Assembly (NCBI GenBank): GCA_964572155.1
Contig: CAZNDZ010000001.1
Location: 79,300-143,299, forward strand
Source: an uncultured Planctomycetales bacterium
GTDB taxonomy: Bacteria > Omnitrophota > Gorgyraeia > Zapsychrales > Fredricksoniimonadaceae
Direction: 5' to 3'
DNA length: 64,000 nt
The position numbers were made by a program, and so were the translations under genes. How positions within the stretch are numbered: position 1 is the first letter of the stretch; each line of letters starts with the position of its first letter. Below, in pieces: positions 14,384 to 60,262 of the stretch. Under the pieces are notes generated by a model, which made no database searches, was not told where the DNA came from, and saw only the letters and a list, made by a program, of their open reading frames with translations.

Positions 14384-15604
14384 TTGATAAAACAACTCAG
14401 ACTATATTTCGACCAACAAATTAACGAAATAAACGATGATGCGGCATTGCGCCTTTATGGAGCGTTTATTTCCATGACATTTGCTGTTGTTGCATTTCAT
14501 TGGATTTTCCATCGATTCGCCAGCATCATCTCATTCCAACCAATCTGCTGGCCATTCTTTGAAAATTGCTTCCAATATAGACTACTATCTATCGATCAAA
14601 TTAGAATTATTTTTTATTTGCTAGGTGGCCTTGCACTTATTGGCACCGTACTATTTCTCATTCCCAAATACTCTCGCATTGCCTTTTGGTGGTTACTATG
14701 CATGGATCTATTATACGCCATCGTTTATACGCAAGATTTTCGATTCCATTGCGAGCAAAATATTATCCTAAATTGGGTGACGCTTTCTTTCTTATGTTTA
14801 CCAAATAAGCGTAATGGTTTAAGGTATTTGCTCGTTTTTATTTATTTTTGTGCCAGTTTATTAAAGTTTAATAATGGATGGATTTCCGGCAATAACCTGT
14901 ATAAAGATTTACTGTGGATTAAGGGCTCTTGGGTTTCGGTTGCATGTATATACGTCGTTGTTTTAGAAGCAATCCTTGTATTTGGATTACTAGCTAAACA
15001 AAATTGGATTTTTTGGCTAACCTTATTTCAACTTATCCTGTTTCACTTAATGTCATGGCCGATCGTCGGTTTTTATTACCCCATCGTCATGTTTTGCATG
15101 TTAAGCATTTTCCCATTAACACATTTCTTAAATTACCGTGAACAGTCCATGAGTTTAATTCTCTCATTGCTCAAAGGAAAGCAAGCCATATCCACGTATA
15201 TTTGCATTGCAATATTGCTTGGTTTTCAGATTTTTCCCATGACTTTTCCGGGAAACAGTAAAATCACCAGCGAAGGGCGCATTATTTCACTACATATGTT
15301 TGACGCGCGCATACAATGCGAAGGCTTATTAACACTTAAATTCAAGAACGGCCTTAATGTCCCCATCGCAGTCCCTATACGAGAAACAGTGAGAATAAAA
15401 TGTGACCCTCTTGTTTATTTTAGTATAGCTAAACGATATTGCTGGATCTATAAACAAGATCCTAACTTTCTGGATATTGACCTAAAATATAATGCCTGCC
15501 AAATCAAAGAACCCCCCATGAAACCATTAGTCAACATTACCAATTTTTGCCAACAAAATCTACATTACAATATGTTTAAAACTAATGAATGGGTAATTAA
15601 ATAA
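14384..15604 (+). CDS. polytopic membrane protein, possibly HTTM (vitamin-K gamma-carboxylase-like) family
   Basis: 406 aa; at least 8 hydrophobic helices and a Cys-containing C-terminal region; family assignment is tentative. Confidence 0.35.
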   Translation: MIKQLRLYFDQQINEINDDAALRLYGAFISMTFAVVAFHWIFHRFASIISFQPICWPFFENCFQYRLLSIDQIRIIFYLLGGLALIGTVLFLIPKYSRIAFWWLLCMDLLYAIVYTQDFRFHCEQNIILNWVTLSFLCLPNKRNGLRYLLVFIYFCASLLKFNNGWISGNNLYKDLLWIKGSWVSVACIYVVVLEAILVFGLLAKQNWIFWLTLFQLILFHLMSWPIVGFYYPIVMFCMLSIFPLTHFLNYREQSMSLILSLLKGKQAISTYICIAILLGFQIFPMTFPGNSKITSEGRIISLHMFDARIQCEGLLTLKFKNGLNVPIAVPIRETVRIKCDPLVYFSIAKRYCWIYKQDPNFLDIDLKYNACQIKEPPMKPLVNITNFCQQNLHYNMFKTNEWVIK

Positions 15605-15611
15605 CCATTGA

Positions 15612-16859
15612 CTATCTGTAGTCTGGTGGTGGGACGTAACACGCATCATGACTAGAATTGTACACACAAAAACACTCTGGTGCTGAAGGCCCCATATCAC
15701 AAGGCGCGTAGTAATACGGAAGCCCGCAAGAATTTCCACCAAAAGCTGGGGTAGGATTATTACAACTAATGACTTTATATCCAGCACAAGAACCTGAATA
15801 ATATGGATAACATTGGGATCCTGAATTCCATCCACCATTAACCGACACACACCCATTACCCCTATATGCATAACCTCTTATTTCTGAAGGATCGTGCCCG
15901 CCACCCCCATCCCATGATGTAACATCTAGATGTTTTGCGCTTACTCTAATATCTACACAATTAAGATTATCATTGCCATCCGAAGCATTGCAACCCCAAG
16001 CAACGTTGCCAGCGCAACTTCCTTCCCATGGACCTCCATCTTTTCTATAAGAATAATTTAAATCATCCGCACATATTTGAAGTACAAAATTTACCGCTGT
16101 TGGATAAGTACCAGAGCTATATTGATTATACACGCCTCCAGCGTAAATAGTCTCAACCTGCTCACAAGGACAATTTACCGCATCGCAAGTCTTTGTTTGA
16201 GGACAAAATGATAAATCGACACTAACCCCATCACTACGTAGACAACTCGTCGGAGACAATGTCGACGCTGCAGAACCACAAGCTGAAGGACATGCAGCAT
16301 ACCCTGGCGTATATGTACACCCTGCCGTTGCGGTGATGTTGCGTCGGCTATCGCCAACACATGGTGTACCGGCGTACTGAGCGTTATTTAAATAATAGCA
16401 TTGCCGTGTTTCAGTGCAATTCCCACACGCACCCTCACATCCAGTCCATGGTCCCCAACCACCATTATCACAACCCGCATGAAAGGTTAAAACATTTGCA
16501 TTATTAGCCGCCCACGTTAAGAAACTTTGATACTCTGCTTGTGTTTTGGCAGGTATAAATAGGCTCACGCCATTGTTAACTGACATAATATAATTACAAT
16601 ATGAAATTGTTTGATTATGATACTCGTAAGAAGATTCGAGCTTTATCTTTGAATCACCTGTAGCTTTGCAACCATTTGTATCGTTGGATTTACAATCATA
16701 CGTGGTTGATTGTCTATCTAATGTGGAATATGTATCATTTGAACTAATATCAATGGTTTGCGTGTCCGTAGCTAATGAAGAACTGGTGAGTAAACAAAAA
16801 AATACGCACGTTGCAAGAACAACGCCTGTAAACAACTTATGTGATTTGCGTATTTTCAT
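15612..16859 (-). CDS. secreted cysteine-rich protein with thrombospondin type-1-like repeat(s)
   Basis: 415 aa; signal peptide; about 40 Cys, Gly/Tyr-rich; GGWGPWTGCEGACGNCTETRQC matches W-x-x-W-x-x-C...C-G...R-x-C of TSP1 repeats. Confidence 0.55.
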   Translation of the reverse strand: MKIRKSHKLFTGVVLATCVFFCLLTSSSLATDTQTIDISSNDTYSTLDRQSTTYDCKSNDTNGCKATGDSKIKLESSYEYHNQTISYCNYIMSVNNGVSLFIPAKTQAEYQSFLTWAANNANVLTFHAGCDNGGWGPWTGCEGACGNCTETRQCYYLNNAQYAGTPCVGDSRRNITATAGCTYTPGYAACPSACGSAASTLSPTSCLRSDGVSVDLSFCPQTKTCDAVNCPCEQVETIYAGGVYNQYSSGTYPTAVNFVLQICADDLNYSYRKDGGPWEGSCAGNVAWGCNASDGNDNLNCVDIRVSAKHLDVTSWDGGGGHDPSEIRGYAYRGNGCVSVNGGWNSGSQCYPYYSGSCAGYKVISCNNPTPAFGGNSCGLPYYYAPCDMGPSAPECFCVYNSSHDACYVPPPDYR

Positions 16860-16913
16860 ATGCCTCTCCTACTAAAAGTCTACCCTATGTGCTACATAAA
16901 TCAAGCCCTCTGG

Positions 16914-17738
16914 TTATTTTTTTGAAAGCGCTTTCTTCGTCTGGGTTTTAAGATTTATGCGTATTAGACCTAATAATGAATTTGACATAAACATCGATGT
17001 TGTGTTTTTTAGCATTTTTGGAGTGATGGGTTTCTCTTGAATCAAAAGGCCCATTTTCTTGGATAAATCAATGACGCGTTGACGCGTGATGCCGTTTAAA
17101 CAACCACTAGATAACGGCGGGGTGAACCATTGATTATGATGAAGGATGAAAATATTGCCGCGGGTGGTTTCGAAAATGTGGCCTGCTTTATTAACTAGGA
17201 TGGCTTCGTCATAACCTAAATGTTGCGCTTGAGCTAGGGCATCGGCAAAGCATGCGTAGTCTAGTGATTTGACGTTGGCGTATCGTCGATTTGCAGGGCG
17301 ATTGGTTTTTATTAACGTGGCTTTCAAGCCTTTTTTATATTGGCTTTCTGTATAAGGCTTATACGGCAACAGCATGCACAGGCAATGCACCTGCGTGCCT
17401 GTTTTAAAGACCATCAGCCGCAGCCGTCCCTCTTTACTTAACGCATTCTTCTTAACCACTTGATGGATAATGGCTTTAAACCCTGCTAATTTGCTAGGAG
17501 ATTTTATTTTTATGACTTTCAAGCCTTTTAAAAGCCGCATTACATGTGCATCTAAATCATCGACCTTTTTACCTTGCACCAACATGGTCTCAAAAACACC
17601 GTGGTATTTTACGCGGCCTGGGGTGAAGATATCAAGTTGCTTTACATCAGCTTTTACATACTTGCTGTCGATATATAGAACTGGTCTTAGATCCAATCTC
17701 TCCCTACTTTCTCGGATACTGATTAGGATATCAGACAT
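16914..17738 (-). CDS. pabC: aminodeoxychorismate lyase / class IV aminotransferase (PabC-like); start chosen at MSDILISI
   Basis: Fold-type IV PLP enzyme motifs (ETTRGNIFI, GCLNGITRQ); longer ORF to 17870 would overlap hicB. Confidence 0.65.
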   Translation of the reverse strand: MSDILISIRESRERLDLRPVLYIDSKYVKADVKQLDIFTPGRVKYHGVFETMLVQGKKVDDLDAHVMRLLKGLKVIKIKSPSKLAGFKAIIHQVVKKNALSKEGRLRLMVFKTGTQVHCLCMLLPYKPYTESQYKKGLKATLIKTNRPANRRYANVKSLDYACFADALAQAQHLGYDEAILVNKAGHIFETTRGNIFILHHNQWFTPPLSSGCLNGITRQRVIDLSKKMGLLIQEKPITPKMLKNTTSMFMSNSLLGLIRINLKTQTKKALSKK

Positions 17739-17796: not shown

Positions 17797-18006
17797 TCAG
17801 ACAATAACATATTCAGATACTGCGTGAGATTTTGGAACGGGGATCCTATCTTCAATAAGGCCCTGCACATGTAATTTTATTGCTTCGTACATATTCTTTT
17901 CCGTCTCCGCTAATGTGCGACCAGTGGCAACACATCCTGGAAGATCAGGCGAATAAGCAGAAAAATTCTTTTTAGCTTGTTCAATAACAATTAAGAAACG
18001 ACGCAT
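17797..18006 (-). CDS. hicB: HicB-family antitoxin
   Basis: 69 aa; YSPDLPGCVATGRTLAE is the typical HicB N-terminal (RNase-H-like) motif. Confidence 0.7.
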   Translation of the reverse strand: MRRFLIVIEQAKKNFSAYSPDLPGCVATGRTLAETEKNMYEAIKLHVQGLIEDRIPVPKSHAVSEYVIV

Positions 18007-18200
18007 TATATTTCCCCTTTTAATTTAGCTTGCTTTAAGATGCTGTTCAATGTTCCCCGTGCTAAATCATGCCCTAGATTTCCAGCAATAGTAACTCTTC
18101 CAGGCTTATCAGGATATTTAAACTGACGATGGCTACCGCTTGTTACAACCCAATACCAGCCATCTTTTTCAATCATTTTAATAGCATCTCTAACCTTCAT
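18006..18200 (-). CDS. hicA: HicA-family mRNA interferase toxin
   Basis: 64 aa; IEKDGWYWVVTSGSHRQFKYP is the YcfA/HicA signature; abuts hicB. Confidence 0.7.
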   Translation of the reverse strand: MKVRDAIKMIEKDGWYWVVTSGSHRQFKYPDKPGRVTIAGNLGHDLARGTLNSILKQAKLKGEI

Positions 18201-21434: not shown

Positions 21435-22181
21435 GTGTATAATTTTTTAAAATTTATGAATGAACTCTCTGTAATTATCCCTGCATATAATGAAGCCGCG
21501 GCCATTAAGGGCAACGTAGCGCTCGTCGTTCAAAAACTTGACGCCTTAAAGATATCTTATGAAATCATCTTAGTCAATGACGGGTCTACAGATGATACCT
21601 TGGCCGTCATGCGCACGCTACAAAACCACAACATCCACATCATCACCTACCCGATCAATCAAGGTAAAGGCCATGCCGTTAAAAGTGGCATGATGTCGGC
21701 TAAGGGAAAATTTCACCTCTTTATGGATGCAGACCTCTCGACTTCGCTTGAGAGCATCGGTATTTTTATGTCGCATATGCGCAACAATGAATATGATCTT
21801 ATCTTAGGTGAACGCGTATCTTCTACCAAACACCGACGGCTGCATCAACCGTTTTACCGCATTTTGCTTGGAAAAATATTTACCGGCTTGTCTCGACTTT
21901 GCGTTGGCCGCATGATCAATGACTTTACCTGTGGCTTTAAAATACTAAATAGCGACGCGTCTCGACTATTATTTTCCCAACAGCGCATCAAACGCTGGGG
22001 CTTTGACACAGAAATCATTTATATCGCCATTCGAAATCGCCTGCGCATCGGCCAAATCCCCGTCATGTGGAACCATCACCCTAATTCTAAAGTGCATGCC
22101 TTAAGCGCTGTCTTTACATCCCTTGGTGACTTGCTTTATATCACTTATAACGGCATCACCGGTCAATATTCCCGTCGGTGA
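21435..22181 (+). CDS. GT2 glycosyltransferase, polyprenol-phosphate sugar synthase-like (DPM1/GtrB/ArnC type)
   Basis: 248 aa; SVIIPAYNEAAAI...ILVNDGSTDDT...DADL DXD motif. Confidence 0.75.
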   Translation: MYNFLKFMNELSVIIPAYNEAAAIKGNVALVVQKLDALKISYEIILVNDGSTDDTLAVMRTLQNHNIHIITYPINQGKGHAVKSGMMSAKGKFHLFMDADLSTSLESIGIFMSHMRNNEYDLILGERVSSTKHRRLHQPFYRILLGKIFTGLSRLCVGRMINDFTCGFKILNSDASRLLFSQQRIKRWGFDTEIIYIAIRNRLRIGQIPVMWNHHPNSKVHALSAVFTSLGDLLYITYNGITGQYSRR

Positions 22182-28101: not shown

Positions 28102-30488
28102 CCTTGCTTATTCCTTTGCATGGCAACCAAGTATCGACCTTCTTTATATGGATGATACTCTCTTAAAATATAGTTGATGATACCCAGTATTTCCTCATGA
28201 TCCCTTGCATATGATGGTGGTAAAGTTTGATTTAAAAATATCTTCTCCATAAATATATACATGGGCTTTGTTTGTTCTAAATCTTGTATTGTACGCTGCA
28301 ACATCTGACGTGTATAAATATTGGTGTGTGGGAACGTGCGTATATTAAGTCCTCGTGATGAAATGATTGGAAAATAAAAGAAGAATGGTCGACGCTCTGC
28401 TTGGATCAACATTTCAATCTCAAAGCTGCTAAGCAGGGCAACCTTGTCTTTGGGTTTAGTTAATGACTGGATCAGCGTCGCATCTTCCTTAAAATTAAAT
28501 TCTTGATTGTATAAGGCTTTTAAATTGTCGTGATCCGGTACTTGCCATTCAAAAAATATTCGCTCTTCGGTTGTGCCCAAAGAATTTGTCTTTAATTTGT
28601 CGAATTCTTGAGCCCATGCATCTTGATGAAAGAAATATGGCCTTCCATCCTCGGGTAATCCATATGCAACCCGACGGTCCACCATAGGATTGCGATAGGT
28701 CTGCATATTCCATATATTAGGGAAAGCAACATACAAATGATTTGTCAGCAACATGATCGCTGATCCAGCAGCTAGAGCCCATGCTGTCAGAGCGCGTGTT
28801 CGCGTTGAAGTGATTTTTTCCATCCACAACTTGACCCAAAAGAAGATCACCCAAACCAGCGGGATCGCGCGCATGAAATAATTGTTCTCTAGCGACAATA
28901 CCAAATAGTGATGATACAAATTAAGCCCATACGCACATACGATGAGGGTGATCAGATCCTCTTTAACTCCTCGGCCAGCGAATAGGCGCATTGTTATCCA
29001 TATAAATGTGCCTAAATATACGATGGGGATAAAGCAACCGATCGCAAATTCCCAATACTTCCCATGCACCAAACTGTCCCAAAACCACACATCATAAAAA
29101 CCATTGGTAAACAAGCTGGGATAATACATCAAGTCCTTCCAAAACCCGACGCTTAAAACAGCATGGCCACAAAAAAACCAGAACACAAAAAATGCAGCGA
29201 TAACAGGAATTGCCATGATCCATAACGGCACCGAAGGTGTTGCTCTGACCGACGGGATAAAACGAATGGCCAAAATGTATGCAAAGAAACCAACCATCAG
29301 GTCAATGCCTGTTGTGGGCATAAAGAATATGGCGCCACCGATCGCCGCAGCCGCCGCAAATACATATGCCCTTGTGCCGTTTTTGATATGAAAAAATATT
29401 AATAACAAAATGGGAATATCCCAAAAACATCGCAACGGTGATCCATTGGGATAAATCGCGCTTACAGGATACGACAGCGCATAGAAGACTTGCCACTTGA
29501 TTGCCAATATCGTCGCTGCCAAAGCCAGAAGCACACTACCCAGCCATAAACGCAAACAGATATAAAATGCCACATAATAAAGGCACGATAACCACCAATA
29601 GACATTAAACACATTTAAATAATCAACCGCCCCAAAAAATTTTGAAATCCCAGCAACGAGCATGGGCATGCCCAGTCCATAAAATACATTTTGATCCACC
29701 CCCAAGACATTACCAACGCTACTCGCATAAGCGCCAGCCATGAGCATAAAATCAAAGTGATAATAATGTTCGCCAAATGCTGTTTTGGCCAATACGGCAA
29801 TTGGATCAATGATCGTCAACATTGAAACAATCCACAAGACGCCGCCTACAAAACCTATGGTTGCCAGCATTGGCTTGGATGACATCCAAACCAAAAAATC
29901 CACCCATGGCACAACAAATGCAGGCATCTTAAATGAGATGTTAGGTTTTATCTTTGTAAGTGACAACACACATGCCAACACAACCGACCATATGCAAAAA
30001 TATCCAACGGCATAAGCTGGCGCACGCAACCATAAGAATACCACCACTGCCATCACCGCAGCAGTGATAATGCCCTTTTGATGCAGGGCTGATCGACGAA
30101 GCATCATGGCAATTTCAGGATAAAATATTTTAGCTAGTATGGAACTTATGCCGACTAATCCCAATAAATGCCACGCCCATGTAGGCTGCGGAGCTTTTAA
30201 AATAAAAACGATGGCAAATATTTCAAGGAAAACAAAAGCAGCGCTCATGGTGACAAATAATGCAGAGCTTTTTATCTTTCTAAAACGCGTTGCTAATAAG
30301 ATCGCTGCAACAATAGCGAGACCAATTGCGGCATGATAGACCAACATCTTCCAATCTTTTTTGGTGATATGCATGTCTTTATCAAAGACCTGTGCCAACA
30401 TTGCCCGCTGATCCATCGGTACAAAAGACATAAGTGCGCCGAAAAGCAACGTGAACTCAACCGTTAACAATAAAATAACATTGGTCAT
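28098..30488 (-). CDS. family-A large polytopic membrane protein (copy A3)
   Basis: 796 aa; AKIFYPEIAMM, GEHYYHFDFMLMAG, YPNGSPLRCFWDIPILL, VALLSSFEIEMLIQAERRPFFFYFP, YIFMEKIFL, YHPYKEGRYLVAMQR. Confidence 0.7.
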   Translation of the reverse strand: MTNVILLLTVEFTLLFGALMSFVPMDQRAMLAQVFDKDMHITKKDWKMLVYHAAIGLAIVAAILLATRFRKIKSSALFVTMSAAFVFLEIFAIVFILKAPQPTWAWHLLGLVGISSILAKIFYPEIAMMLRRSALHQKGIITAAVMAVVVFLWLRAPAYAVGYFCIWSVVLACVLSLTKIKPNISFKMPAFVVPWVDFLVWMSSKPMLATIGFVGGVLWIVSMLTIIDPIAVLAKTAFGEHYYHFDFMLMAGAYASSVGNVLGVDQNVFYGLGMPMLVAGISKFFGAVDYLNVFNVYWWLSCLYYVAFYICLRLWLGSVLLALAATILAIKWQVFYALSYPVSAIYPNGSPLRCFWDIPILLLIFFHIKNGTRAYVFAAAAAIGGAIFFMPTTGIDLMVGFFAYILAIRFIPSVRATPSVPLWIMAIPVIAAFFVFWFFCGHAVLSVGFWKDLMYYPSLFTNGFYDVWFWDSLVHGKYWEFAIGCFIPIVYLGTFIWITMRLFAGRGVKEDLITLIVCAYGLNLYHHYLVLSLENNYFMRAIPLVWVIFFWVKLWMEKITSTRTRALTAWALAAGSAIMLLTNHLYVAFPNIWNMQTYRNPMVDRRVAYGLPEDGRPYFFHQDAWAQEFDKLKTNSLGTTEERIFFEWQVPDHDNLKALYNQEFNFKEDATLIQSLTKPKDKVALLSSFEIEMLIQAERRPFFFYFPIISSRGLNIRTFPHTNIYTRQMLQRTIQDLEQTKPMYIFMEKIFLNQTLPPSYARDHEEILGIINYILREYHPYKEGRYLVAMQRNKQG

Positions 30489-31900
30489 TTTCTCACCGCC
30501 ACCGCAACCAAGGTTGTTCCAAAAGGCATGGGGATTTTACCGTATAGAAAAACTTCTGCTTTAAGCAATGTTGTCATAAAACCATTGAATCCGGATACTG
30601 GATTCAAATACATATCAGTCGACGGTGACGCATCACGCGCGAATATCTTGTGCAATATACGCACGATGGCAACAGGAAGAAATGGCAGGCAGAATAAATA
30701 ATTTAACTGCTTGATCTCAAACCCTGCTTCTTCTAATAATGTCCTCACATCCCGTGGATTATATCTGCGCAAATGCGACAAAGCCTCATCATGGGGCCCA
30801 AATAAAAAACGGCACGCCGGTACTGTTATGATCAGTTGTCCATTTTCTTTGAGTGTATCTTTTAACTGACGAACCACCGCCCAAGGATTACGTGTGTGTT
30901 CAATGACATCTAATGACAAGACAACATCAAATGTATTGGCTTTAAATGGCAATTGATCTAAATTCCCACGCACCAAGCTTGTATGCCCATTGGCTTGACA
31001 AAACTTTAATGCCTGCGACGAGACATCAAGACCAACATATGGACCTTGGGCGCCTAAAAAACGCATATTATGCCCTGTCCCACAACCCGCATCTAACACC
31101 AATGGGTTTTTAACGTTAACGCATTGTTGTAAAATCTTTCGCATAAAAGCCGCCTTGGTCACAAACCACCAATGATGACTTTCATTCTCATACATCTGGG
31201 CAACATCTTTATCTGACATGTGCTCGTCCTGAGTATTAATCTTTGGAAAATGCCAGATGCGAATACATAAAACATCCCAAAACATTTTAAAATTCATGCT
31301 CAACTGTTTTCGCCTAGAACCATCAACCGTAATAACCTTGGTCTTATAACCTAACTGATAACTAACATAAGCCCATTCCACATCAAAACCATCATCCTCT
31401 AAATAAATACGCCCTAATAATCCCCCTAAATCTTTTTGCCGGATAATACGAAACATGCATGGCAAGAAACATAATTTATCAGCCAAACATGCAGCAACCC
31501 ATCGATCAAAAGCTTTATGTGGCACAACACTTGCCTTAACCCCCAAAACAACTTCTTTAGTATTATCAAATTTATCGACGCATGACAGCACATCGCTTAA
31601 GGACACGTTCAAATCTTCGATAACAACAAGAACACGACCCTTCGCATCAAACAATCCACGTTTAATAGCCGCGGCCCGTCCTAATCCTTTTGGTATTTCA
31701 AGGATACGTCCCGACTTAGGTTGTGTTGCTTTTGCATCATTGACGACAAAAACAATCTCATCACCACCATTCTTTTCACAGAGATCAACGAGTTGCTTAA
31801 TAATTGGTGCTTGCGCTTCAATGATGTTTAATAGAGGAACAATGAAGGAGCGCTCGATCTGCTTATTCATGCGCCCACCTATATAATTTTCGAAAGACAA
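30485..31900 (-). CDS. fusion protein: GT2-like glycosyltransferase N-domain plus class I SAM-dependent methyltransferase C-domain
   Basis: 471 aa; N-half IVFVVNDAKATQ...VVIEDL...DGFDVEW; C-half LDAGCGTGHNMRFL...FDVVLSLDVIEH. Confidence 0.5.
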   Translation of the reverse strand: MSFENYIGGRMNKQIERSFIVPLLNIIEAQAPIIKQLVDLCEKNGGDEIVFVVNDAKATQPKSGRILEIPKGLGRAAAIKRGLFDAKGRVLVVIEDLNVSLSDVLSCVDKFDNTKEVVLGVKASVVPHKAFDRWVAACLADKLCFLPCMFRIIRQKDLGGLLGRIYLEDDGFDVEWAYVSYQLGYKTKVITVDGSRRKQLSMNFKMFWDVLCIRIWHFPKINTQDEHMSDKDVAQMYENESHHWWFVTKAAFMRKILQQCVNVKNPLVLDAGCGTGHNMRFLGAQGPYVGLDVSSQALKFCQANGHTSLVRGNLDQLPFKANTFDVVLSLDVIEHTRNPWAVVRQLKDTLKENGQLIITVPACRFLFGPHDEALSHLRRYNPRDVRTLLEEAGFEIKQLNYLFCLPFLPVAIVRILHKIFARDASPSTDMYLNPVSGFNGFMTTLLKAEVFLYGKIPMPFGTTLVAVAVRK

Positions 31901-42552: not shown

Positions 42553-42875
42553 AGGGTAAAATATATGAACAATGTCATCTTAGTAAAAAAAGCTGCAACA
42601 TCACGGCAAGAGCCAATCTTACTCTCCTGCCACTGACGCAATTGTTTTTGTCGACGGGTAAGATCTTGATTTTCAAAGAAAGAAGCCGCACCAAATACGC
42701 CAGACCAATTAAAAACATAAATCACCATGATCATAAGCGTCCGCAATAAGGTCGGCATGCCCATGATCTTGCGGTATAATTTCTCTGCGGTTTGAACAAC
42801 GATGTGATGTTCTAAATCGCTGACATAGGCGGGACACAAAATGCCTTGTACAATACAGAAAATGATCTTATCCAA
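42534..42875 (-). CDS. small hypothetical membrane protein
   Basis: 113 aa; one or two hydrophobic segments; sits between the GMC gene and B3 with overlaps typical of coupling. Confidence 0.3.
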   Translation of the reverse strand: MDKIIFCIVQGILCPAYVSDLEHHIVVQTAEKLYRKIMGMPTLLRTLMIMVIYVFNWSGVFGAASFFENQDLTRRQKQLRQWQESKIGSCRDVAAFFTKMTLFIYFTLCPKKN

Positions 42876-45369
42876 CTGCTCTCCTAACTGCCCAAATCAC
42901 CACGCCCATGCTCAAAAGAATGGACAATGGTATTAAAACTCTTAATGGTGAATTTGGCCAATATTTAAACAAGACTTGATGTTTCCCTGCTGATATAGGA
43001 ACGCCTAAAAAATACCCATTAACTTTAGATATCGCTGCACGTTTGCCATCAATCCACACTTGCCATTTTTCATCATAGGGATAATGCGCAATCAACCAAC
43101 CATCTGTGCTTGCTTGAAACGTAACCCCAAGCTGATCACTCGTATTACGCCAAATATTTAAAATATCCCCGCTTTGTACTAAGCGTAATGTTAACTTTAT
43201 ATTGCCCTTAAGGTATCCCTTTGGCAACCCAAGTACTAAGTATCCATCTTTGACATTATTAACATCAAAGGTAAATGACTCTGCAATGGCACCTTGAACT
43301 GGTGTAAGCAAGCTTTCTAACCCTTCTAATATAAGCCGATTACGATCTTGTGTAAATATCGCTGTTGATTCATAGCTTGGAAAACTCTTTGGTAATTTAA
43401 TGGCATATAGCACAGGATTTCCATTTTTAATCATTTGCGCTTTGCTTAATGGTATTTGAAATTCACGGACACGCGCCGGTAACATTTGACGTGGACCTTC
43501 AGGTGTACCGCTAGCTAAAACTAAAAATCGTTGGTCTTGAGCCAATGCTTGATATAACCTCTGATTATTTCCCCAATCTTGGTATATTTTTGGTCTTGGT
43601 TCATAAATATCCGCATGATCAGCAAATCGCTCTAAGGGCATATACGAAAAGAAATACCCATAATGACCTTGGAATGTATGCATATGCGGATCCGTGGCTG
43701 AAGGCAGGATGCGGAAATATTCTCGGAAAGGTAAAATTTTAGGATTCTGATAGTCGACTAACAAAGAACGCTGATCTTCAAACCCATCGTATACGCTTGG
43801 CTTAATATGTCGTCCATCTTTGATAGATAAGTATCCACCACGATTAGCAAATTCACCATGATATTGATTGTTGTCATAATATTGTTTTAATGCAAAAACA
43901 TCCACCCCCATAAAAACACAAAACAAGAATATGCCAACATGTTTGCGTGCTACTCCATTTAAGTCGATTAACTTTTTCTGGCAAACATAAACATAAAGAA
44001 TAGCTACGCTTAACATCAACAACATATACGTTTTAAACTCAAATGACAAAAACCACGCTGATAGAAAAAGTAACATCAGATAAACCGCTAAAAGCACCCT
44101 TAGCCGTATCTGACTTACACGGTCATGCAGCATGTCATAGCCCGATTGCAAACCAAATGCAACTAAAGGGAAAATTAAGTATGGCAATAACAAAACAGGC
44201 ATGTGATAGCTTCGCAATAAAAAACTAAACGGATTCGTTAAGGCATTGATCCAATGAGCGACGGACAAAAGACCCGTGTCATTGAGCGGCACATTGGTCA
44301 AGAGCACAAGTGTGCTAGCTATGGCAAAAACATATTTGGCTCGAATTTTTGAACAGATGAGGCCCATGAAAATCAACAAGACAACAGCAGCACCCCAGAA
44401 TATCCAAGATTTTTCCCAAGTTGCATTTGTAAAATCAATCAACTTTTCAGGCAACTCTGTTAATGGCAAAATTGTTTCGCCTTTTGGAGCAAAATACTTC
44501 TGTGGATTAAACATCCTGCTAAATCGACCTTGTGTGCCGTTTAAACCAGAACCTTCCACAAAGAAATCTTTTCCGAGTATATTGAAAAACATCACGCTCG
44601 GCAAAATAATGCACGCGCCTATAACAATGGTAATACCTATGGCTTTAAGATTTTTTGGTGCAACCATTCCTGTAAATGAAATGTTGCGACGATGAAAAAT
44701 GATTCCATAAATCAAAGCAACCATCATTAAGAAATGAACATTTTGATAAAAATATCCAGCACCCAACAAGGGATTCCCTGCGATGGCCACGATTAACAAT
44801 AGTACAAAACCAATAAAATCACGCGTTTGAAATTTCTCGACATAACTAATGATGAAATATGCCAAAAAAGGGAAATAACTATATAGATTGTTTGCAACAA
44901 GGCCTAAATACATCGACGACGATAAGAATGTGTTAAGTATCACTAGCGCAATGATGATCATGCCGTCATTAAGTTTAAATTTACGTAATAACACATAACC
45001 GCCAATGAGCCGCAATAAAATATTAAAGGCTGGGTGAACAAGACTAAAAATATGTTGGAATGCTTCGCCTGGGTTTGATTGAAATGGTAATAAAACAATC
45101 CCCACAAGCGCTGTTAAAATATTAGACAATGTATACAGGCCATGCCCCAAATGGTTGAACGCAAAGGTCATCCCATCATATCGGTCAAATATTTGCAATC
45201 CGCCTTGAAAGAAATTAGAAATCAGAAAAAATACGCTTTCATATGGGATCTCAGCGTCGTGGTGCCATAACATGCTTTGATTGTGAAACCAGAAAAGGTC
45301 GCTAAATATCACCATGCAAGCGCACAAGGTAAATGCAAAACTTAAAGTAATGATCTTTAATGCATTCAT
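42868..45369 (-). CDS. family-B large membrane protein (copy B3), YfhO-like
   Basis: 833 aa; NFFQGGLQIFDRYD; C-terminal PYDEKWQVWIDGKRAAISKVNGYFLGVPISAGKHQVLFKYWPNSPLRVL plus terminal TM. Confidence 0.6.
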   Translation of the reverse strand: MNALKIITLSFAFTLCACMVIFSDLFWFHNQSMLWHHDAEIPYESVFFLISNFFQGGLQIFDRYDGMTFAFNHLGHGLYTLSNILTALVGIVLLPFQSNPGEAFQHIFSLVHPAFNILLRLIGGYVLLRKFKLNDGMIIIALVILNTFLSSSMYLGLVANNLYSYFPFLAYFIISYVEKFQTRDFIGFVLLLIVAIAGNPLLGAGYFYQNVHFLMMVALIYGIIFHRRNISFTGMVAPKNLKAIGITIVIGACIILPSVMFFNILGKDFFVEGSGLNGTQGRFSRMFNPQKYFAPKGETILPLTELPEKLIDFTNATWEKSWIFWGAAVVLLIFMGLICSKIRAKYVFAIASTLVLLTNVPLNDTGLLSVAHWINALTNPFSFLLRSYHMPVLLLPYLIFPLVAFGLQSGYDMLHDRVSQIRLRVLLAVYLMLLFLSAWFLSFEFKTYMLLMLSVAILYVYVCQKKLIDLNGVARKHVGIFLFCVFMGVDVFALKQYYDNNQYHGEFANRGGYLSIKDGRHIKPSVYDGFEDQRSLLVDYQNPKILPFREYFRILPSATDPHMHTFQGHYGYFFSYMPLERFADHADIYEPRPKIYQDWGNNQRLYQALAQDQRFLVLASGTPEGPRQMLPARVREFQIPLSKAQMIKNGNPVLYAIKLPKSFPSYESTAIFTQDRNRLILEGLESLLTPVQGAIAESFTFDVNNVKDGYLVLGLPKGYLKGNIKLTLRLVQSGDILNIWRNTSDQLGVTFQASTDGWLIAHYPYDEKWQVWIDGKRAAISKVNGYFLGVPISAGKHQVLFKYWPNSPLRVLIPLSILLSMGVVIWAVRRAVG

Positions 45370-45372
45370 GAA

Positions 45373-45768
45373 TTACCTGCCTGCCAACTGAGATAATTTG
45401 ATCTTATATTGTTGGGTATTGTATTCAGACAATTGCAAGGCCATGGATAATTTCTTAACCGCGGAGGCAACATCGCCACGAGCTTCGTCTTCCAGTGCCA
45501 TATGATATAGCGCGTCGGTATTATTATTCATCGACATGGCGGTTAAAAATTGATTTTGTTTTTCCATGCTCGCCACTTGCCCCTTTAACGTGGATAACAT
45601 GGCATCCGTCTTGCGATAATCTGCCCTAAAAACAAGCACCATGGCCAAATACACCGCCACGACCACAATCACGGCTTTCACCCCAAAATCCAACCACGTT
45701 TTCATTAATGTGTTCATACATTCCCTTTCATGTGTTTGTGCCAAATCTGCAGGGTTAACAATCCCCAC
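45373..45768 (-). CDS. small single-TM protein with coiled-coil/TPR-like tail (true start possibly 45717)
   Basis: 131 aa ORF; hydrophobic helix AVIVVVAVYLAMVLVF; overlaps asnB at its 5' end unless an internal start is used. Confidence 0.3.
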   Translation of the reverse strand: MGIVNPADLAQTHERECMNTLMKTWLDFGVKAVIVVVAVYLAMVLVFRADYRKTDAMLSTLKGQVASMEKQNQFLTAMSMNNNTDALYHMALEDEARGDVASAVKKLSMALQLSEYNTQQYKIKLSQLAGR

Positions 45769-47594
45769 AAGAGCCGGCTATTATCTTTTTGTTTGCGCCA
45801 ATGTGTTTGACATAGATCGTCGACAACCGATGCATTAAATAGTTGGCCCACAACACCATCTTTTAAACTATCAGCCACATAACTTTTAAGAGGCCCGTCG
45901 ATCCAGCCAGCTATGGGCGAGGTTAGACCCTTCTTTTTACCACGGATCACCGGCTTGGGTAAATAAGCACTCGCCACATCTTTGAGGATGCGCTTGGTCT
46001 GACGCAGATTTACTTTATAGCCATACGGCAATGAACAAGCAAATTCTACGACGTGATGATCTAACATAGGAACGCGTGCCTCTAAACCATGAGCCATGGT
46101 CATGCGATCAACTTTTCGTAAATGATCATTGAGCAAATACGTATTTAAATCAACGTTCATCAACTGATTGATCCTTGATAAATTCTGGGCTTTGTCAAAA
46201 TAACGCTCTGCGACGCTAAATGGGTTATAGCCACCTAAACTGGCAAAATGATCTGTTTGCCATAAAGCACGTTGTTGTTCTAAGGAAGCCACTTGCCGCC
46301 ACGTCATATGCGCATGCTGATAATCAACGCCTATGCCTTGCATCAATTGCTTTAAACGAAAATCAAGTGAGATGCGTTTATGAGAGACGGGCATGTTCGC
46401 AATATTAGTGCTAATTAGCTTTCTGACATAGGCGGGAGTTTTTTGCCACATGGCTTGATAGTATGGCGCTTGATAGGTCGGATAACCGCCAAACAATTCA
46501 TCACCCCCATCGCCCGTTAACACCACTTTTAATTTTTGTCGTGCGGCTTTAGCTAGTAAATACGTCGGCACATAGCTGGCATTGCCCAACGGCTCATCAA
46601 ACGCTTTGATGATGGTTTCAATCAAATCTGGATTCACATCTTCCATGATGTGTATATCTAAATCAACACCACATCGTGCAGCCGTTAATTTTGCTAAGTC
46701 GGTCTCATCATAACTTTTGTCGGCAAAACCAATGCCAAAAGATTGCAATCTTCCCGATGCACTTTGTGCCGCGATGGCCGTGACCAACCCCGAATCAATG
46801 CCGCCACTTAAGAACGTTCCCAACGGCACATCCGCGCCTAGATGAGATGCCACGGCCTTTTTAAGCAAACCATCTAATTGATCTTTGGCATCATGATAGG
46901 TAATAGATTTTTCTTGATCGACGGGGATTTGCCAATAAGGCTTGATCGACATCTGCCCATTTTTAATGATGGCATAATGCGCAGGCGGCAATTGATAGAC
47001 ATTCTCAAATATTGTTTCTGGTTCGCAAATATACCAATAGCTTAAATAATCACTGATGGCTTTTAAGTTAAGCTTCAAATCAAAGAAGCCGCTTTTAACG
47101 ATAGGGGTCAATTCAGATGAAAACAGGATACGTCGAGCATCTTGCGTATAATACAACGGTTTTTGACCCATGCGATCTCGGGCCACAAACAAGGTTTTTT
47201 CTTTCGCATCCCATATGCTAAACGCAAACATCCCATTTAATTGCTTTAAGCAATCAACGCCCCACGCGATATAGGCTTGCAATAATACTTCCGTATCACT
47301 ATGCGTCTTGCAATAAAATCCCTTATCTTTAAGGATCGTCCTTAATTGTGCGTGATTATAAATCTCCCCATTGAAAACAATGGTGTATCGCCCGTCACCC
47401 GACGACAATGGCTGATGACCACCTGCTAAATCAATGATGGATAAACGCCGCTGGCCCAAGGCCACATGGCCGCTAATAAAGACACCTTCATCATCTGGGC
47501 CACGGTGTGTTAAATAATTATTTAGGGTGGAACATTGGTGCTGATCAATGCAGCTCTTAGCATCGAAACTTAGATGGGTGATGATCCCGCACAT
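45714..47594 (-). CDS. asnB: asparagine synthetase (glutamine-hydrolysing) family amidotransferase
   Basis: 626 aa; N-terminal MCGI (Cys2 nucleophile), GATase-II domain, PP-loop SGGIDS. Confidence 0.8.
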   Translation of the reverse strand: MCGIITHLSFDAKSCIDQHQCSTLNNYLTHRGPDDEGVFISGHVALGQRRLSIIDLAGGHQPLSSGDGRYTIVFNGEIYNHAQLRTILKDKGFYCKTHSDTEVLLQAYIAWGVDCLKQLNGMFAFSIWDAKEKTLFVARDRMGQKPLYYTQDARRILFSSELTPIVKSGFFDLKLNLKAISDYLSYWYICEPETIFENVYQLPPAHYAIIKNGQMSIKPYWQIPVDQEKSITYHDAKDQLDGLLKKAVASHLGADVPLGTFLSGGIDSGLVTAIAAQSASGRLQSFGIGFADKSYDETDLAKLTAARCGVDLDIHIMEDVNPDLIETIIKAFDEPLGNASYVPTYLLAKAARQKLKVVLTGDGGDELFGGYPTYQAPYYQAMWQKTPAYVRKLISTNIANMPVSHKRISLDFRLKQLMQGIGVDYQHAHMTWRQVASLEQQRALWQTDHFASLGGYNPFSVAERYFDKAQNLSRINQLMNVDLNTYLLNDHLRKVDRMTMAHGLEARVPMLDHHVVEFACSLPYGYKVNLRQTKRILKDVASAYLPKPVIRGKKKGLTSPIAGWIDGPLKSYVADSLKDGVVGQLFNASVVDDLCQTHWRKQKDNSRLLWGLLTLQIWHKHMKGNV

Positions 47595-56513: not shown

Positions 56514-57380
56514 CTACGCCTTTCTGCCTTGCAAATGTGTCCATTTCTCTTTTGGGACACAAAAAATATTTGTGGTGATCTTTTGATTCTTATAAACATC
56601 TAACTCTTTACTTTTATCAAATGGATAAAACGTATCCGTCGCATGTTCATAGGTCAAAAAGCAATAGTCCAACTTTTCAAAATAATCCGTCAAGCGTTCC
56701 ATCAGGTTAGGATTGTGTTCTATCAAGATTGCAGGACGGGAAGATTTTATTGTTTTAACCAACCCTAAAAGTACTTCATCATCAAAACCTTCCGTATCAA
56801 TCTTAATGATATCTGGCTTTAAATTCAACTCATCAATCGGCAAAATATCAACCTTGTACTCCACAATCACAATGCTTTTATCTTTATCGTCGGGTAAATG
56901 CTGTTCGATCATCGTGGTTTGAACATAATCTTTGCGCAATGACGCGGCGGTATAGATGGGCACGCTGTTATAGATTGGTATATAGAGCGTCATCTGAGAT
57001 CTTTCACGTCCAGCGCCAATCAACTTATAGTCAAAACGCGGCAATCGCTTCTTTAACTTGCGTAGCGAACGCTCATGACACAAGTTTGGCTCAAGGGACA
57101 AAATGCGGTAATCGCTATGAATATGACGAAAACCAATGGCCGATATCCCATCATTCGCGCCAATATCCAAAAACAACCCATCCCCGGGATGCACCAAATG
57201 CATAAAGCCATAATAACTTTTATCATGAGGCAATAAGAACGGGATGTACTGAAAAAGGCGACGGCCAATAAAACCCGTATAAGGGTTATAGCGCAACAAA
57301 CGCGGGATCGCTGAATTGATCCGCCATAGGCGGATGATTTGTCGACGAAACTGACGGAACAATATTCTTAAACGGATCAT
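56514..57380 (-). CDS. FkbM-family methyltransferase
   Basis: LFLDIGANDGISAIGF (Methyltransf_21 motif); start MIRLRILF forms an ATGA overlap with the upstream gene stop; ORF extends to 57455. Confidence 0.6.
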   Translation of the reverse strand: MIRLRILFRQFRRQIIRLWRINSAIPRLLRYNPYTGFIGRRLFQYIPFLLPHDKSYYGFMHLVHPGDGLFLDIGANDGISAIGFRHIHSDYRILSLEPNLCHERSLRKLKKRLPRFDYKLIGAGRERSQMTLYIPIYNSVPIYTAASLRKDYVQTTMIEQHLPDDKDKSIVIVEYKVDILPIDELNLKPDIIKIDTEGFDDEVLLGLVKTIKSSRPAILIEHNPNLMERLTDYFEKLDYCFLTYEHATDTFYPFDKSKELDVYKNQKITTNIFCVPKEKWTHLQGRKA

Positions 57381-59062
57381 GTTTTTCCTATAAGTTCTCG
57401 GATCGTTAGAGCATCTGGATAAGGGTAAAGTTTTTGTAAATCCCACGTATAACAATATTCTTTGATCTTGTCTAAACCAGAACGTTCAAGGAATTCTAAA
57501 CACGGCTGATTTTTTTCTGTCTTCACATAATCCGCAACCAACAACCTCGATGTGGATTTTGCCAACACCACGGCTTTGGCCATCATAGCATCTTCTACAA
57601 AACGACCAAATACGCGGCAACTTAAAATAAAATCTTCAAGATACGCCGTATCAGGCCCAACGGATAAACCAATCATACCTGTCAATCCAGAATCACCTAA
57701 ATCATCTGACACCCGAAAAACAAACACATGACGGCCGGACATATTTGCCCACTGCCAATATTCTTGTTCTGTCATCCGTCGGGTTTTTAAATTCATCTGA
57801 TTGGTCTTATTGAGTAGTTGCACAGCCCTTGATAAATTCGACGAATCTAATGGCTCAATCGTTAAAACCATATGCAATGAAGTCAACCAATCTTTGACAG
57901 ACATGGCAGGTTGTTTTAAATCTTGACGTTTTTGTTCAGCCACATACATATCCGTGCGTTGCTTATCTTCCGTTGTTACAGCGACCATATCAAAATATGG
58001 CATGGCAGCTAAGGTTTGAGCATACAAATAATGTTCTGTTGGCCACGTCGGGACAGTGATATCAGCAATCGATGTTTTAATCCGATCTCGCTCAGCGGGA
58101 TGATCATCAATATAAACAGCCGCTGACGCAGGCAAATTTAATTCATTTAGAATATCAACGATGTTTTGGGCTTTATCCGACCAGTTAATGCGCCAAGCCG
58201 CAAAATCTTCTTTTCTTAGAATCATTTCTGGATGCGTGGTAATGGCATCCAATGCCGTGCTTTCATCGTTCTTACTAACAATGGCCAAAACAATGCCGCG
58301 TTGTCTTAAGATTTTAAGCTGACGTTGAAAATCAACAAAGGCTTCACCCGTTGCGTCATGCCCTCCAAGTTTAATATTGTTTTTGCCAAGATCGCCGAGC
58401 TCTCCACCCCAAAGCGTATTATCTAAATCAAGGATGATCAATTTTTTGGTTTGTCCGTAAAAAACGCCCAGTGTTTGTTTAATATCAATCGCCGCTGTTT
58501 TTAACACTTCCATGTCATATGGCAATTTGCTCACGTACCATAATTTTGGATTTACCGCTTTAGGACCTATGGCATGCAACCAATGATTAGGGTCTTTAAA
58601 GATCACATTTGGTGTATGTGTCAACGCATCAATCAACAACCCATTGGCCCTATGTAACCAGCGACGGACACCGTTTTGACTATAGTCCAACGGGCCTGTC
58701 CCACGATAATGATGTGGCAAGGCAAATAAACAAACAATCACATGTTTGACGCTTGCGGCCTTTTCTCTAATGTGACTCGCCAACGTTAGAACTTCTTGTT
58801 CGATCGACGACGGATTAACATCTTGAAAATTCATGAGCTTGGCTAAGGATGGCAAAATGCTCCACGGTTGGCACCATATCACCGCAAAATCTGAAGCATC
58901 ATCCCATGCAGGATGTTTTGGATTTGATAATGTTTGATATACCTGCCCAAATGGTAATGTTTTAATGGAACATGCAGGAGCCATGGCGAGGTTGTTCAAA
59001 TATCCAACCATGACATCACAATTAAAATCCGAAATGATTACACCTTTTAAACGCTCTTGCAT
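57377..59062 (-). CDS. FkbH-like / HAD-superfamily subfamily IIIC domain protein
   Basis: 561 aa; LIILDLDNTLWGGELGD HAD motif I, VSKNDE motif; N-terminal region as in FkbH-type proteins. Confidence 0.65.
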   Translation of the reverse strand: MQERLKGVIISDFNCDVMVGYLNNLAMAPACSIKTLPFGQVYQTLSNPKHPAWDDASDFAVIWCQPWSILPSLAKLMNFQDVNPSSIEQEVLTLASHIREKAASVKHVIVCLFALPHHYRGTGPLDYSQNGVRRWLHRANGLLIDALTHTPNVIFKDPNHWLHAIGPKAVNPKLWYVSKLPYDMEVLKTAAIDIKQTLGVFYGQTKKLIILDLDNTLWGGELGDLGKNNIKLGGHDATGEAFVDFQRQLKILRQRGIVLAIVSKNDESTALDAITTHPEMILRKEDFAAWRINWSDKAQNIVDILNELNLPASAAVYIDDHPAERDRIKTSIADITVPTWPTEHYLYAQTLAAMPYFDMVAVTTEDKQRTDMYVAEQKRQDLKQPAMSVKDWLTSLHMVLTIEPLDSSNLSRAVQLLNKTNQMNLKTRRMTEQEYWQWANMSGRHVFVFRVSDDLGDSGLTGMIGLSVGPDTAYLEDFILSCRVFGRFVEDAMMAKAVVLAKSTSRLLVADYVKTEKNQPCLEFLERSGLDKIKEYCYTWDLQKLYPYPDALTIRELIGKT

Positions 59063-60237
59063 TATTTATGCTCGACTTGACCCCAAAGGGCTTTAAACAT
59101 CCTATTAATTGGCTCTGGTCGCAGATGGCCAAAATCCACAAAATCTCTATCACTTAAACCCACATCTGTTGGGTTATATGACCCAAAAACTTTAATGCCC
59201 TTATCTTTAGCAAAATTACGCATCCATTGTTCTGAAATCTTAACCATTGGATATTGATCCGTTTGATACATGCGCTCAAAACTTGCCGTATAATACGGAG
59301 GAATATAAAAATATATTTCAACGCCTTTTTTCTGCAAAACGTCGATCATCTTAACAAAAAATGTTTGTAACATAGGATCAATGGCATAAAAATCTTCCAC
59401 ATTAGACATTCTACCATCGATGGCGCGCTTTTTCTCTGTCTCATCAACCTCTGCTATCGTCTTACCAAAAGCTTCGGGGATCACAATGCCAGAACCATCA
59501 GGACTTAAAAGCATGCCAAAGCCTTCTTTAACGCTATTATAATTCCATGTCAGCTTTGGTTCTTTTAATACTTCATATTCATTATAATCCCAAGGTGCTT
59601 GGCCCTTTCTCCATATAGAGAAGTTATACGTTGCAATCTCTGGATTAAATAGATTTGACGCACGCTCCCAAGGTATGTCTTTTAATACATCCTTGATTTT
59701 ATCGGTGAATGTCAGCGGCTTGCCTTCAAAAACGGAATTGATCATGTAATCATGATAAAATGCCAACTTCTGCCATTCATTGCGCGTTGAATCATCTGGC
59801 GCAACATTTAATAACCAAGGTTCTATGGTAAAAATCATACGTTTTGGAAAGCTAAGCTTATGGTACGCATAAACACCCACTAAACCTAAATAATCATGAA
59901 CGGAAGCGCCTCCAACCCATAGGTTTAGAAATGTTCCTTGTTCTTTGAAAACGTCTTTATTGAGATTTAAAATGCGGCTACTGCCTAAAATCACGGTATC
60001 GGCCACGGGATTGGCCTTGATCATGGCTTGTTTAAGATATCGATCCGCCCAATGTTGGGGACCTAAAATATACTCGCCTTTTTGCAAATGCCAGACAAAT
60101 TGGTCATAAATGCCTTTGGGTACAAACACATTAGCATAGTCAAAGCGTAAATTGAACCATGCCAGACTGCCCATGATGACAAAAAAAGACACAATGAGGC
60201 TGACCCCAAGAATCTTAATAGATCGTTTTTCAACCAT
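59062..60237 (-). CDS. DltD-like membrane-anchored SGNH-type protein (MBOAT partner)
   Basis: 391 aa; N-terminal TM anchor; VILGSSRI (DltD-like Ser motif) and C-terminal DFVDFGHL (D-x-x-H). Confidence 0.5.
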   Translation of the reverse strand: MVEKRSIKILGVSLIVSFFVIMGSLAWFNLRFDYANVFVPKGIYDQFVWHLQKGEYILGPQHWADRYLKQAMIKANPVADTVILGSSRILNLNKDVFKEQGTFLNLWVGGASVHDYLGLVGVYAYHKLSFPKRMIFTIEPWLLNVAPDDSTRNEWQKLAFYHDYMINSVFEGKPLTFTDKIKDVLKDIPWERASNLFNPEIATYNFSIWRKGQAPWDYNEYEVLKEPKLTWNYNSVKEGFGMLLSPDGSGIVIPEAFGKTIAEVDETEKKRAIDGRMSNVEDFYAIDPMLQTFFVKMIDVLQKKGVEIYFYIPPYYTASFERMYQTDQYPMVKISEQWMRNFAKDKGIKVFGSYNPTDVGLSDRDFVDFGHLRPEPINRMFKALWGQVEHK

Positions 60238-60262
60238 ATAATTTTTTGATATACTATATCAC

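Follow-up and report, generated by a model that had tools for sequence, protein, structure and literature searches.

A predicted secreted, cysteine-rich bacterial protein with divergent thrombospondin type-1 repeats

We analyzed 64,000 nucleotides of a contig from a probable Omnitrophota bacterium (CAZNDZ010000001.1 of assembly GCA_964572155.1, positions 79,300 to 143,299 of the forward strand), a stretch referred to below as the window. PurH encoded in the window shares 59-67% identity with PurH of Candidatus Omnitrophota MAGs and no more than 56% with any other PurH; this comparison and one homolog contig named after the phylum (see below) are the basis of the assignment. On its minus strand lies a gene for a 415-residue, predicted secreted and cysteine-rich protein, the subject of this report (the target). 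An initial annotation, made from the sequence without database searches, had proposed that this protein contains a eukaryote-like thrombospondin type-1 repeat (TSR). The proposal has stood at the level of the protein family, whose profiles match TSR structures in the Protein Data Bank (PDB), and residues 131-181 (TSR-A) are, on sequence homology, a genuine but divergent TSR. The features of the gene, in window coordinates, are:

16863..16870, minus strand: Shine-Dalgarno-like AGGAGAGG, with 3 nt between its end and the ATG, read directly from the sequence
15612..16859, minus strand: whole coding sequence of the 415-residue, predicted secreted, Cys-rich TSR protein, with ATG start and stop codon included, as given in the list of open reading frames (ORFs)
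16770..16859, minus strand: probable Sec signal peptide, residues 1-30, with a basic n-region, a hydrophobic core and SLA/TD
16470..16712, minus strand: family-specific N-terminal domain, residues 50-130, pattern YDC..GC..C.Y.S..NG.SLFIPAKT..EY.SF..WA..C, with 4 Cys
16317..16469, minus strand: TSR-A, residues 131-181 (WGPWTGCEGACGNC..TRQC), a divergent TSR with the pattern W135xxW138xxC141xxxC145G..TR152xC154..C167..C181
16164..16319, minus strand: module B, residues 181-232, a Trp-less 8-Cys repeat, pattern C.TYTP.YA.CP..CG...S.LSP.SC.RSDG....C....C....C
15849..16163, minus strand: middle domain, residues 233-337, with ..DDLNYSYRKDGGPWEGSC..WDGGGGHD.., modeled with low confidence by AlphaFold2 (AF2)
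15666..15848, minus strand: TSR-C, a degenerate TSR, residues 338-398, pattern GGW345..C350..C358..C366NNPTPAFGGNSC378..C387
15615..15665, minus strand: short C-terminal tail VYNSSHDACYVPPPDYR, residues 399-415, without a hydrophobic window; a similar tail is found in the relative P0009

The ORF is present as initially annotated, and the exact 415-residue protein sequence is recorded in NCBI and Logan assemblies. Its sole hydrophobic segment spans residues 6-32, with K2, R4, K5 and K8 before it and SLA/TD (the slash marks the cleavage site) after it, and the N-termini of homologs resemble that of the target. The signal peptide and its cleavage site were assigned by hand from the sequence; residues 1-30 are a probable Sec-type signal peptide, in agreement with the earlier reading. 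The target N-terminus, MKIRKSHKLFTGVVLATCVFFCLL, contains no G-xxxx-E prepilin motif and has no pilin match in Pfam or NCBIfam, and the whole protein has no match in NCBIfam. The cysteine content had been put at about 40, which is too high. We counted 32, two of which lie within the N-terminal hydrophobic segment, leaving 30 in the predicted mature protein, an even number that is compatible with all cysteines being paired in disulfides. The composition is rich in Ser, Gly, Thr, Ala, Cys and Asn, and the predicted mature protein is acidic (pI ~4.6). GC content is ~41% across the whole window, with no break in composition at the TSR gene. No tRNA or Rfam features were found in the window, a promoter and terminator scan gave the same counts as shuffled sequence, and no other ORF of the window matched the TSR, module-B or family profiles.

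Thrombospondin type-1 repeats in a small bacterial family

A word-indexed search of 5.8 billion proteins recovered the target only, and its profile version almost nothing more. HMMER, run exhaustively over 1.84 billion cluster representatives, gave 23 matches. About half of these are bacterial-type proteins with a signal peptide, the N-terminal domain and a canonical TSR, such as WSPWSACSNTCGKGESTRTC, at the aligned position; the others are of eukaryote type, carry several TSRs each and score 64-446 bits with Pfam. No relative was found by a protein-query scan of GTDB representative genome contigs, and a scan of 241 million metagenome records yielded one further locus (L093, 84% identity). Family members carry the canonical WSxWSxCSxxCGxGxxTRxC at the position of TSR-A, and the bacterial homologs P0008, P0011, P0014-P0017 and P0026 are nameless in all sources searched. 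A small, rare bacterial family of TSR proteins therefore exists. These homologs share with the target the signal peptide, the N-terminal domain and TSR-A, and differ from it in their C-terminal architectures.

Pfam TSP_1 (PF00090), the profile search put forward in the initial annotation as a check, is the best match of the target (residues 134-173, 18.4 bits, E = 0.0025), followed by TSP1_spondin. The gathering threshold of TSP_1 is 21.6 bits, so the check succeeds as to the identity of the top match but the target itself stays below the cut-off, whereas several of its relatives pass. The 92%-identical ortholog P0002 scores 22.2 bits, and P0011, P0014, P0016 and P0015 score 26.9, 26.2, 26.0 and 22.3 bits, respectively, all above the threshold. 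The highest scores belong to P0026, with 47.4 bits for TSP_1 and 55.2 bits for TSP1_ADAMTS. We then compared a profile built from the target and its bacterial relatives, with zero eukaryotic sequences (A3), with all PDB sequences. The best matches are the human thrombospondin-1 TSR structures 3R6B and 1LSL (E ~1e-9), followed by TSRs of BAI1/vasculostatin, UNC5 and F-spondin (E range 1.2e-9 to 1.9e-4), and all PDB matches listed for this profile are TSR-containing proteins. The target sequence alone retrieved TSR chains only, with thrombospondin-1 on top (E = 1.1e-3). Since several homologs pass the Pfam cut-off and a purely bacterial profile matches thrombospondin-1, we take the homology of TSR-A to eukaryotic TSRs as established at family level.

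The string quoted in the initial annotation, GGWGPWTGCEGACGNCTETRQCYY, corresponds to residues 133-156. Inspection of TSR-A shows the WxxW tryptophan ladder (W135 and W138) to be present and conserved across the family. At positions matching TSR2 and TSR3 of thrombospondin-1 (1LSL, 3R6B), TSR-A has the WxxWxxC, CxxxCG, TRxC and GxPC.G motifs, and the target is predicted to resemble thrombospondin-1 in being extracellular, disulfide-rich and composed of tandem modules. Unlike thrombospondin-1, the target is bacterial and acidic rather than basic. Its strand-B arginine ladder is reduced to R152 (TETRQC, with TRTRQC or STRTC in homologs), its C2-C3 loop is two residues shorter, and it lacks the O-fucosylation site, with CEGACG in place of CSxTCG. 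The six cysteines of TSR-A (141, 145, 148, 154, 167 and 181) also deviate from the thrombospondin-1 pattern, as the canonical fifth cysteine is absent and C148 is extra. In both the target (CGNC) and P0008 (CGSC), a cysteine replaces the second glycine of CGxG and the fifth canonical cysteine is missing, while the remaining homologs retain the canonical TSR cysteine pattern. TSR-A may therefore carry a rewired disulfide.

Structure prediction points in the same direction, with less weight than the profiles. Modeled as a single sequence, the target is disordered, with a predicted local distance difference test score (pLDDT) of 34.6. With a 19-row alignment, AF2 gave pLDDT values of 61-89 for residues 131-180 and of 89-95 for residues 181-232. 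In a Foldseek comparison with the PDB (350,000 chains), 10 of the top 11 structures have the TSR fold, and the predicted fold of residues 131-232 retrieves almost only TSR structures. The TSR matches comprise a membrane attack complex component, TRAP, properdin, midkine, semaphorin-5A TSR3-4, F-spondin TSR1 and TSR4 (TM 0.50 to the latter) and the POFUT2-TSR complex. None of the Foldseek matches has E <= 1e-3, which is usual for a domain of ~50 residues within a 415-residue query.

The initial annotation had also placed a second, degenerate copy at GPWEGSCAGNVAWGC (residues 276-290, window 15990-16034). We rejected this candidate, which has no TSR profile match and lies inside the middle domain. 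A second TSR-like segment is instead located at residues ~339-390, within TSR-C. Searched against the PDB, residues 334-415 match TSR-containing chains only, namely those of thrombospondin-1 (E = 0.0017), ADAMTS13 (E = 0.014) and UNC5B. A TSR hidden Markov model (HMM) built from eukaryote-type repeats gives 17.3 bits at residues 344-378, a score that is partly circular because the repeats were retrieved by the target itself. CNNPTPAFGGNSC of TSR-C corresponds to CNNPTPQFGGKDC of human thrombospondin-1, and CNNPTPxFGGxxC recurs nearly letter for letter in thrombospondin-1 TSR3. The segment has a single tryptophan (W345), K362 in place of an arginine, and no arginine ladder. P0009 holds a more canonical TSR-C at the matching position (GGWGEWGPC...NRSCNNPAPAYGG). 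Judged from these alignments, residues ~339-390 appear to be a genuine TSR-like segment, that is, a degenerate second TSR.

These data bear on the simplest alternative, in which WxxWxxC...CG...RxC would have arisen by chance in an orphan protein of low complexity, rich in Cys, Gly and Ser and without any TSR. The sub-threshold Pfam score of the target, its disordered single-sequence model, the word-indexed search that recovered nothing else, and a composition dominated by a few residue types would all be expected from such a protein. They are set against a family found by HMMER in which the canonical motif occurs at the aligned position and scores above the Pfam cut-off, the bacterial-only profile that matches thrombospondin-1 structures at E ~1e-9, a second and independent segment (residues 339-378) that retrieves TSRs only, and the TSRs at the top of the Foldseek ranking. 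We regard a chance motif as very improbable and as essentially, or at least largely, refuted.

Further modules and probable diversification of the locus

The N-terminal domain (residues 50-130) is conserved in P0008, P0011, P0014-P0017 and P0026, has no Pfam or PDB match, and was modeled with a beta/alpha pattern at a pLDDT of ~53-81. The middle domain is common to P0009 (41% identity over residues 218-408) and P0011, and is marked by the motif DDLNYSYRKDGGPW...WDGGGGHD.

Module B lies between TSR-A and the middle domain. An HMM built without the target, from the module-B copies of P0015 and the seven of P0010, gives 51.7 bits on module B of the target. In a MAFFT alignment, module B matches column for column the Pfam-certified TSP1_ADAMTS domain of P0026 (C..CG...C.RSDG..V...C...C...C), and P0008 has a Trp-containing, ADAMTS-like unit where the target has module B. 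Like the ADAMTS-type TSRs (TSP1_ADAMTS, PF19030), module B has six cysteines in the same order and with similar spacing, a CG after the second cysteine, and a C.RSDG...V....C stretch that aligns with the P0026 domain; an ADAMTS13 TSR is also among the PDB matches for TSR-C. Unlike them, it lacks tryptophan, carries two additional cysteines and is shorter between C4 and C5. Alignment of module B with eukaryotic TSRs by hhalign was not significant, the module-B profile retrieved one spurious antibody match only from the PDB, and Pfam assigned 1 of 11 module-B repeats weakly to TSP1_ADAMTS (E = 0.0087). Module B is thus a likely, or at least a possible, Trp-less derivative of an ADAMTS-type TSR.

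In two relatives the same modules occur in a different setting. P0009 (L086, 3629-4996) and P0010 (L087, 1112-2947) carry module B, the middle domain and TSR-C behind prepilin-like G/xxxxE N-termini (RRG/QSMIE and RKG/QGVLE, respectively), each followed by a hydrophobic helix. The Pfam Class_IIIsignal score of P0010 is sub-threshold (19.3 bits against a threshold of 23.7 bits, E = 0.0011), and neither N-terminus has a pilin match in NCBIfam. If the motif is taken at face value, it would place the Cys-rich modules on type IV pilin-like or Flp-like proteins. The gene for P0026 (L089, 1374-2087) adjoins a convergent gene of the DsbA/thioredoxin family and a T2SSE/MshE ATPase gene. These neighbors could hint at oxidative-folding and secretion partners for the TSR family.

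In the window, the TSR gene comes after pabB-hicAB-pabC, and the slot after pabC is occupied by TSR proteins at other loci as well. It holds P0008 (379 residues) in L083 and L084, where PabC is 60% identical to that of the window. In L085 (2239-4779), P0011 (330 residues; N-terminal domain, TSR and middle domain) and then the ortholog of the target stand in tandem, while the window has a single gene. In L088, whose syntenic neighbors are 54-88% identical to those of the window, the slot holds P0015 (833 residues), with DUF4215-like Cys repeats and four copies of module B. Both the ortholog P0002 (92% identity) and P0008 (46-50%) sit in the syntenic slot of the target. The TSR proteins of the slot show 28-50% identity, confined to the N-terminal 200-250 residues; beyond these the architecture diverges, and the C-terminal parts of homologs range from none to an ADAMTS-type TSR, DUF4215-like Cys repeats or module-B arrays.

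Comparison with L085 revealed a breakpoint near codon 203 of the TSR gene that resembles recombination. DNA identity is 68-89% over the 5' half of the gene (window 16251-16936) and 78-81% for pabB and pabC, and jumps abruptly to ~99-100% at 16250, a level maintained across the convergent membrane-protein gene as far as ~14050. The L085 copy of the TSR gene is frameshifted exactly at the junction, and the L085 contig may be an assembly chimera at this point. The intact, independent ortholog P0002 shows the same break, with S202T as the last amino-acid difference. Taken together, the sequences suggest rapid diversification of the TSR locus through recombination and the exchange of modules.

Between pabB and pabC, the window encodes a HicA/HicB toxin-antitoxin pair (17797-18200, minus strand), and L088 has a Fic/HTH_17 gene in its place. 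The exchange at one position indicates that the neighborhood gathers mobile or defence-type insertions. On the other side, a gene for a 406-residue polytopic membrane protein (14384-15604, plus strand) is convergent with the TSR gene at a distance of 8 bp, and shows a weak MauE match (E = 0.001). Its family, unnamed but widespread, has members of ~400 residues in Bacteriovorax stolpii, Myxococcaceae, Binatia and Omnitrophota, whose genes elsewhere lie in operons with those of other uncharacterised proteins; the closest homolog is on contig Omnitrophota_Kpj58rc. In L088 (7974-10964), two membrane-protein genes follow P0015 on the same strand. The first encodes 468 residues with a weak DoxX match and an N-terminus that is HTTM-like by eye, and the second encodes 502 residues without a match. 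We considered the 406-residue neighbor as a dedicated partner of the TSR protein and rejected it, as it is dissimilar to the 468-residue protein of L088 and its homologs occur without TSR neighbors.

The membrane-protein cluster and the glycosylation proposal

The initial annotation had speculatively linked the target, as a glycosylation substrate, to a cluster of glycosyltransferase-C (GT-C)-like genes ~6 kb away. The distance is about right, as the first large membrane gene lies 5.7 kb off at 22533, but the cluster shows no similarity to DPY19, the enzyme that C-mannosylates WxxW tryptophans in eukaryotes, in the Pfam, NCBIfam and PDB comparisons given below. Its features are:

22533-45369, minus strand: tandem array of large membrane proteins with 11-14 transmembrane segments, in two paralog families
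22533, 25883, 28098, 34460 and 39212, with shorter related ORFs at 24649 and 27637, minus strand: members of family 1
31863, 36642 and 42868, minus strand: members of family 2, which match only the C-terminal ~65 residues of YfhO or PgfM1
30485-31900: S-adenosylmethionine (SAM) methyltransferase among the membrane proteins of the cluster
21435-22181: family 2 glycosyltransferase (GT2) of the polyprenol-phosphate-glycosyltransferase type, near the cluster

The array comprises eight large polytopic proteins, three of which match the YfhO C-terminus and one, weakly, PgfM1. It is probably a cluster for glycan decoration of the cell envelope. Further envelope-related genes lie at 45714-47594 and 57377-61702 of the window, encoding an asparagine-synthase-type amidotransferase, an FkbH-domain protein and a DltB-like MBOAT; the amidotransferase has a sub-threshold match to the XrtA/PEP-CTERM amidotransferase.

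Under the glycosylation proposal, W135 and W138 would be C-glycosylated by one of the GT-C-like proteins, with a polyprenyl-phosphate sugar supplied by the GT2, in a bacterial counterpart of the DPY19 system. Three observations speak for it. W135-G-P-W138-T-G-C141 fits the eukaryotic WxxW/C acceptor consensus, the GT2 gene and eight large polytopic membrane proteins are nearby, and enzymes of the YfhO/Pgf type can glycosylate surface adhesins in Firmicutes. The acceptor motif is not specific evidence, as both tryptophans are structurally required in TSRs, and their place in the TSR core suffices to account for their conservation. Pfam Dpy19 matched none of six proteins at E <= 10 and neither of two YfhO-type proteins at E <= 0.01, with the protein at 42868-45369 compared with NCBIfam only, and no DPY19-family enzyme turned up in the part of the 64-kb window that encodes the large membrane proteins (22.5-45.4 kb). 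Profiles of both paralog families matched no solved structure in the PDB, GT-C enzymes and DPY19 included. The 5.7 kb between the cluster and the TSR gene is filled with unrelated genes (pabC, hicAB, pabB, RNase T, LPG_synthase_C and CxxCxxCC), and clusters of this kind normally decorate cell-envelope polymers. C-mannosylation is itself reported as limited to metazoa and alveolates (PMC6801728). We conclude that the link between the cluster and the TSR protein is unsupported; C-glycosylation of W135 and W138 by these paralogs, whether as an independent invention or through a very remote relative of DPY19, is extremely improbable.

A proposed binding or adhesion role

We propose that the target is a ligand-binding or adhesion protein, Sec-exported, disulfide-rich and modular, with TSRs as its recognizable units, and we consider this reading the probable one with moderate confidence. 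In order, the probable signal peptide is followed by the N-terminal domain, TSR-A, module B (probably TSR-derived), the middle domain and TSR-C. The mature protein would act outside the cytoplasm, where it would bind a partner protein or some component of the surface or matrix of another cell, in the manner of the TSRs of thrombospondin, properdin, BAI1 and apicomplexan TRAP and CSP. The binding role is suggested by the known roles of TSRs, the module-swapping and recombining locus, the pilin-like relatives and the lifestyle proposed for Omnitrophota. Where the function of a TSR is known, it is overwhelmingly one of binding. Fast module swapping and recombination are often seen in genes for surface-interaction proteins and therefore fit a diversifying protein for binding or adhesion. 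The acidic pI (~4.6) and the single ladder arginine make a heparin-like polyanion, a ligand of the basic animal TSRs, unlikely in this case.

The closest functional analogy is offered by the apicomplexan parasites. The established view regards TSRs as an adhesion module of animals that these parasites gained by lateral transfer (PMC3417536). Like TRAP and CSP, the target would place a TSR on a secreted or surface protein of a microbe that depends on other cells, and the TSR of TRAP is among both the Foldseek and the PDB sequence matches. Unlike TRAP and CSP, the target lacks a vWA domain, has no membrane-spanning anchor and is not connected to a gliding motor. The partners proposed for Omnitrophota also differ, being other prokaryotes and not animal cells (PMC10066038). 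The statement in the initial annotation that these domains are typical of host-interacting organisms was conjectural, as Omnitrophota have so far been proposed to be epibiotic or predatory ultra-small cells that rely on pili and adhesins (PMC10066038).

Several points weigh against this reading. The target itself stays under the Pfam TSP_1 threshold, no Foldseek match reaches E <= 1e-3, and the N-terminal, middle and C-terminal parts are poorly modeled by AF2, with pLDDT values below 50 for the latter two. No membrane anchor or sorting motif is recognizable in the target, its C-terminal tail included, and no secretion-system gene adjoins the TSR gene in the window. Finally, the adhesive role is drawn by analogy with TSRs of other organisms.

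A serious rival is that the protein is not an adhesin. It would instead be secreted as an effector, toxin or inhibitor of Cys-knot-like type, or belong to the structure of the envelope or periplasm, and its TSRs would serve as disulfide scaffolds only. Small disulfide-rich modules are common scaffolds in toxins and inhibitors, an anchor or sorting signal is not seen, neither the N-terminal nor the middle domain has a detectable relative whose function is known, and rapid diversification is equally expected of antagonistic effectors. Against this, no catalytic or toxin domain was detected in the target with Pfam or NCBIfam, TSRs are established as binding modules in the proteins where their function is known, and P0009 and P0010 bear the same modules behind pilin-like N-termini. 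We judge a scaffold or effector role to be unlikely, though it has to be taken seriously.

A more specific version of the binding or adhesion reading is that the TSR modules form a shuffling adhesin toolkit, partly carried on type IV pilin-like proteins, with which Omnitrophota would attach to host or prey cells. We offer this version tentatively and consider it unlikely, though not remote.

We found no account of prokaryotic TSR proteins in the literature searched. What is new here is a bacterial family in which true TSRs stand beside novel Cys-rich modules, encoded at a locus that recombines and swaps modules. If the TSRs are merely disulfide scaffolds, the result is a minor gain in annotation. 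If the target is an attachment factor, it would be a concrete candidate for the recognition of partner cells by Omnitrophota. It would also illustrate how a TSR with a rearranged disulfide can occur in nature, and would serve to test whether TSRs passed from eukaryotes to bacteria or the other way.

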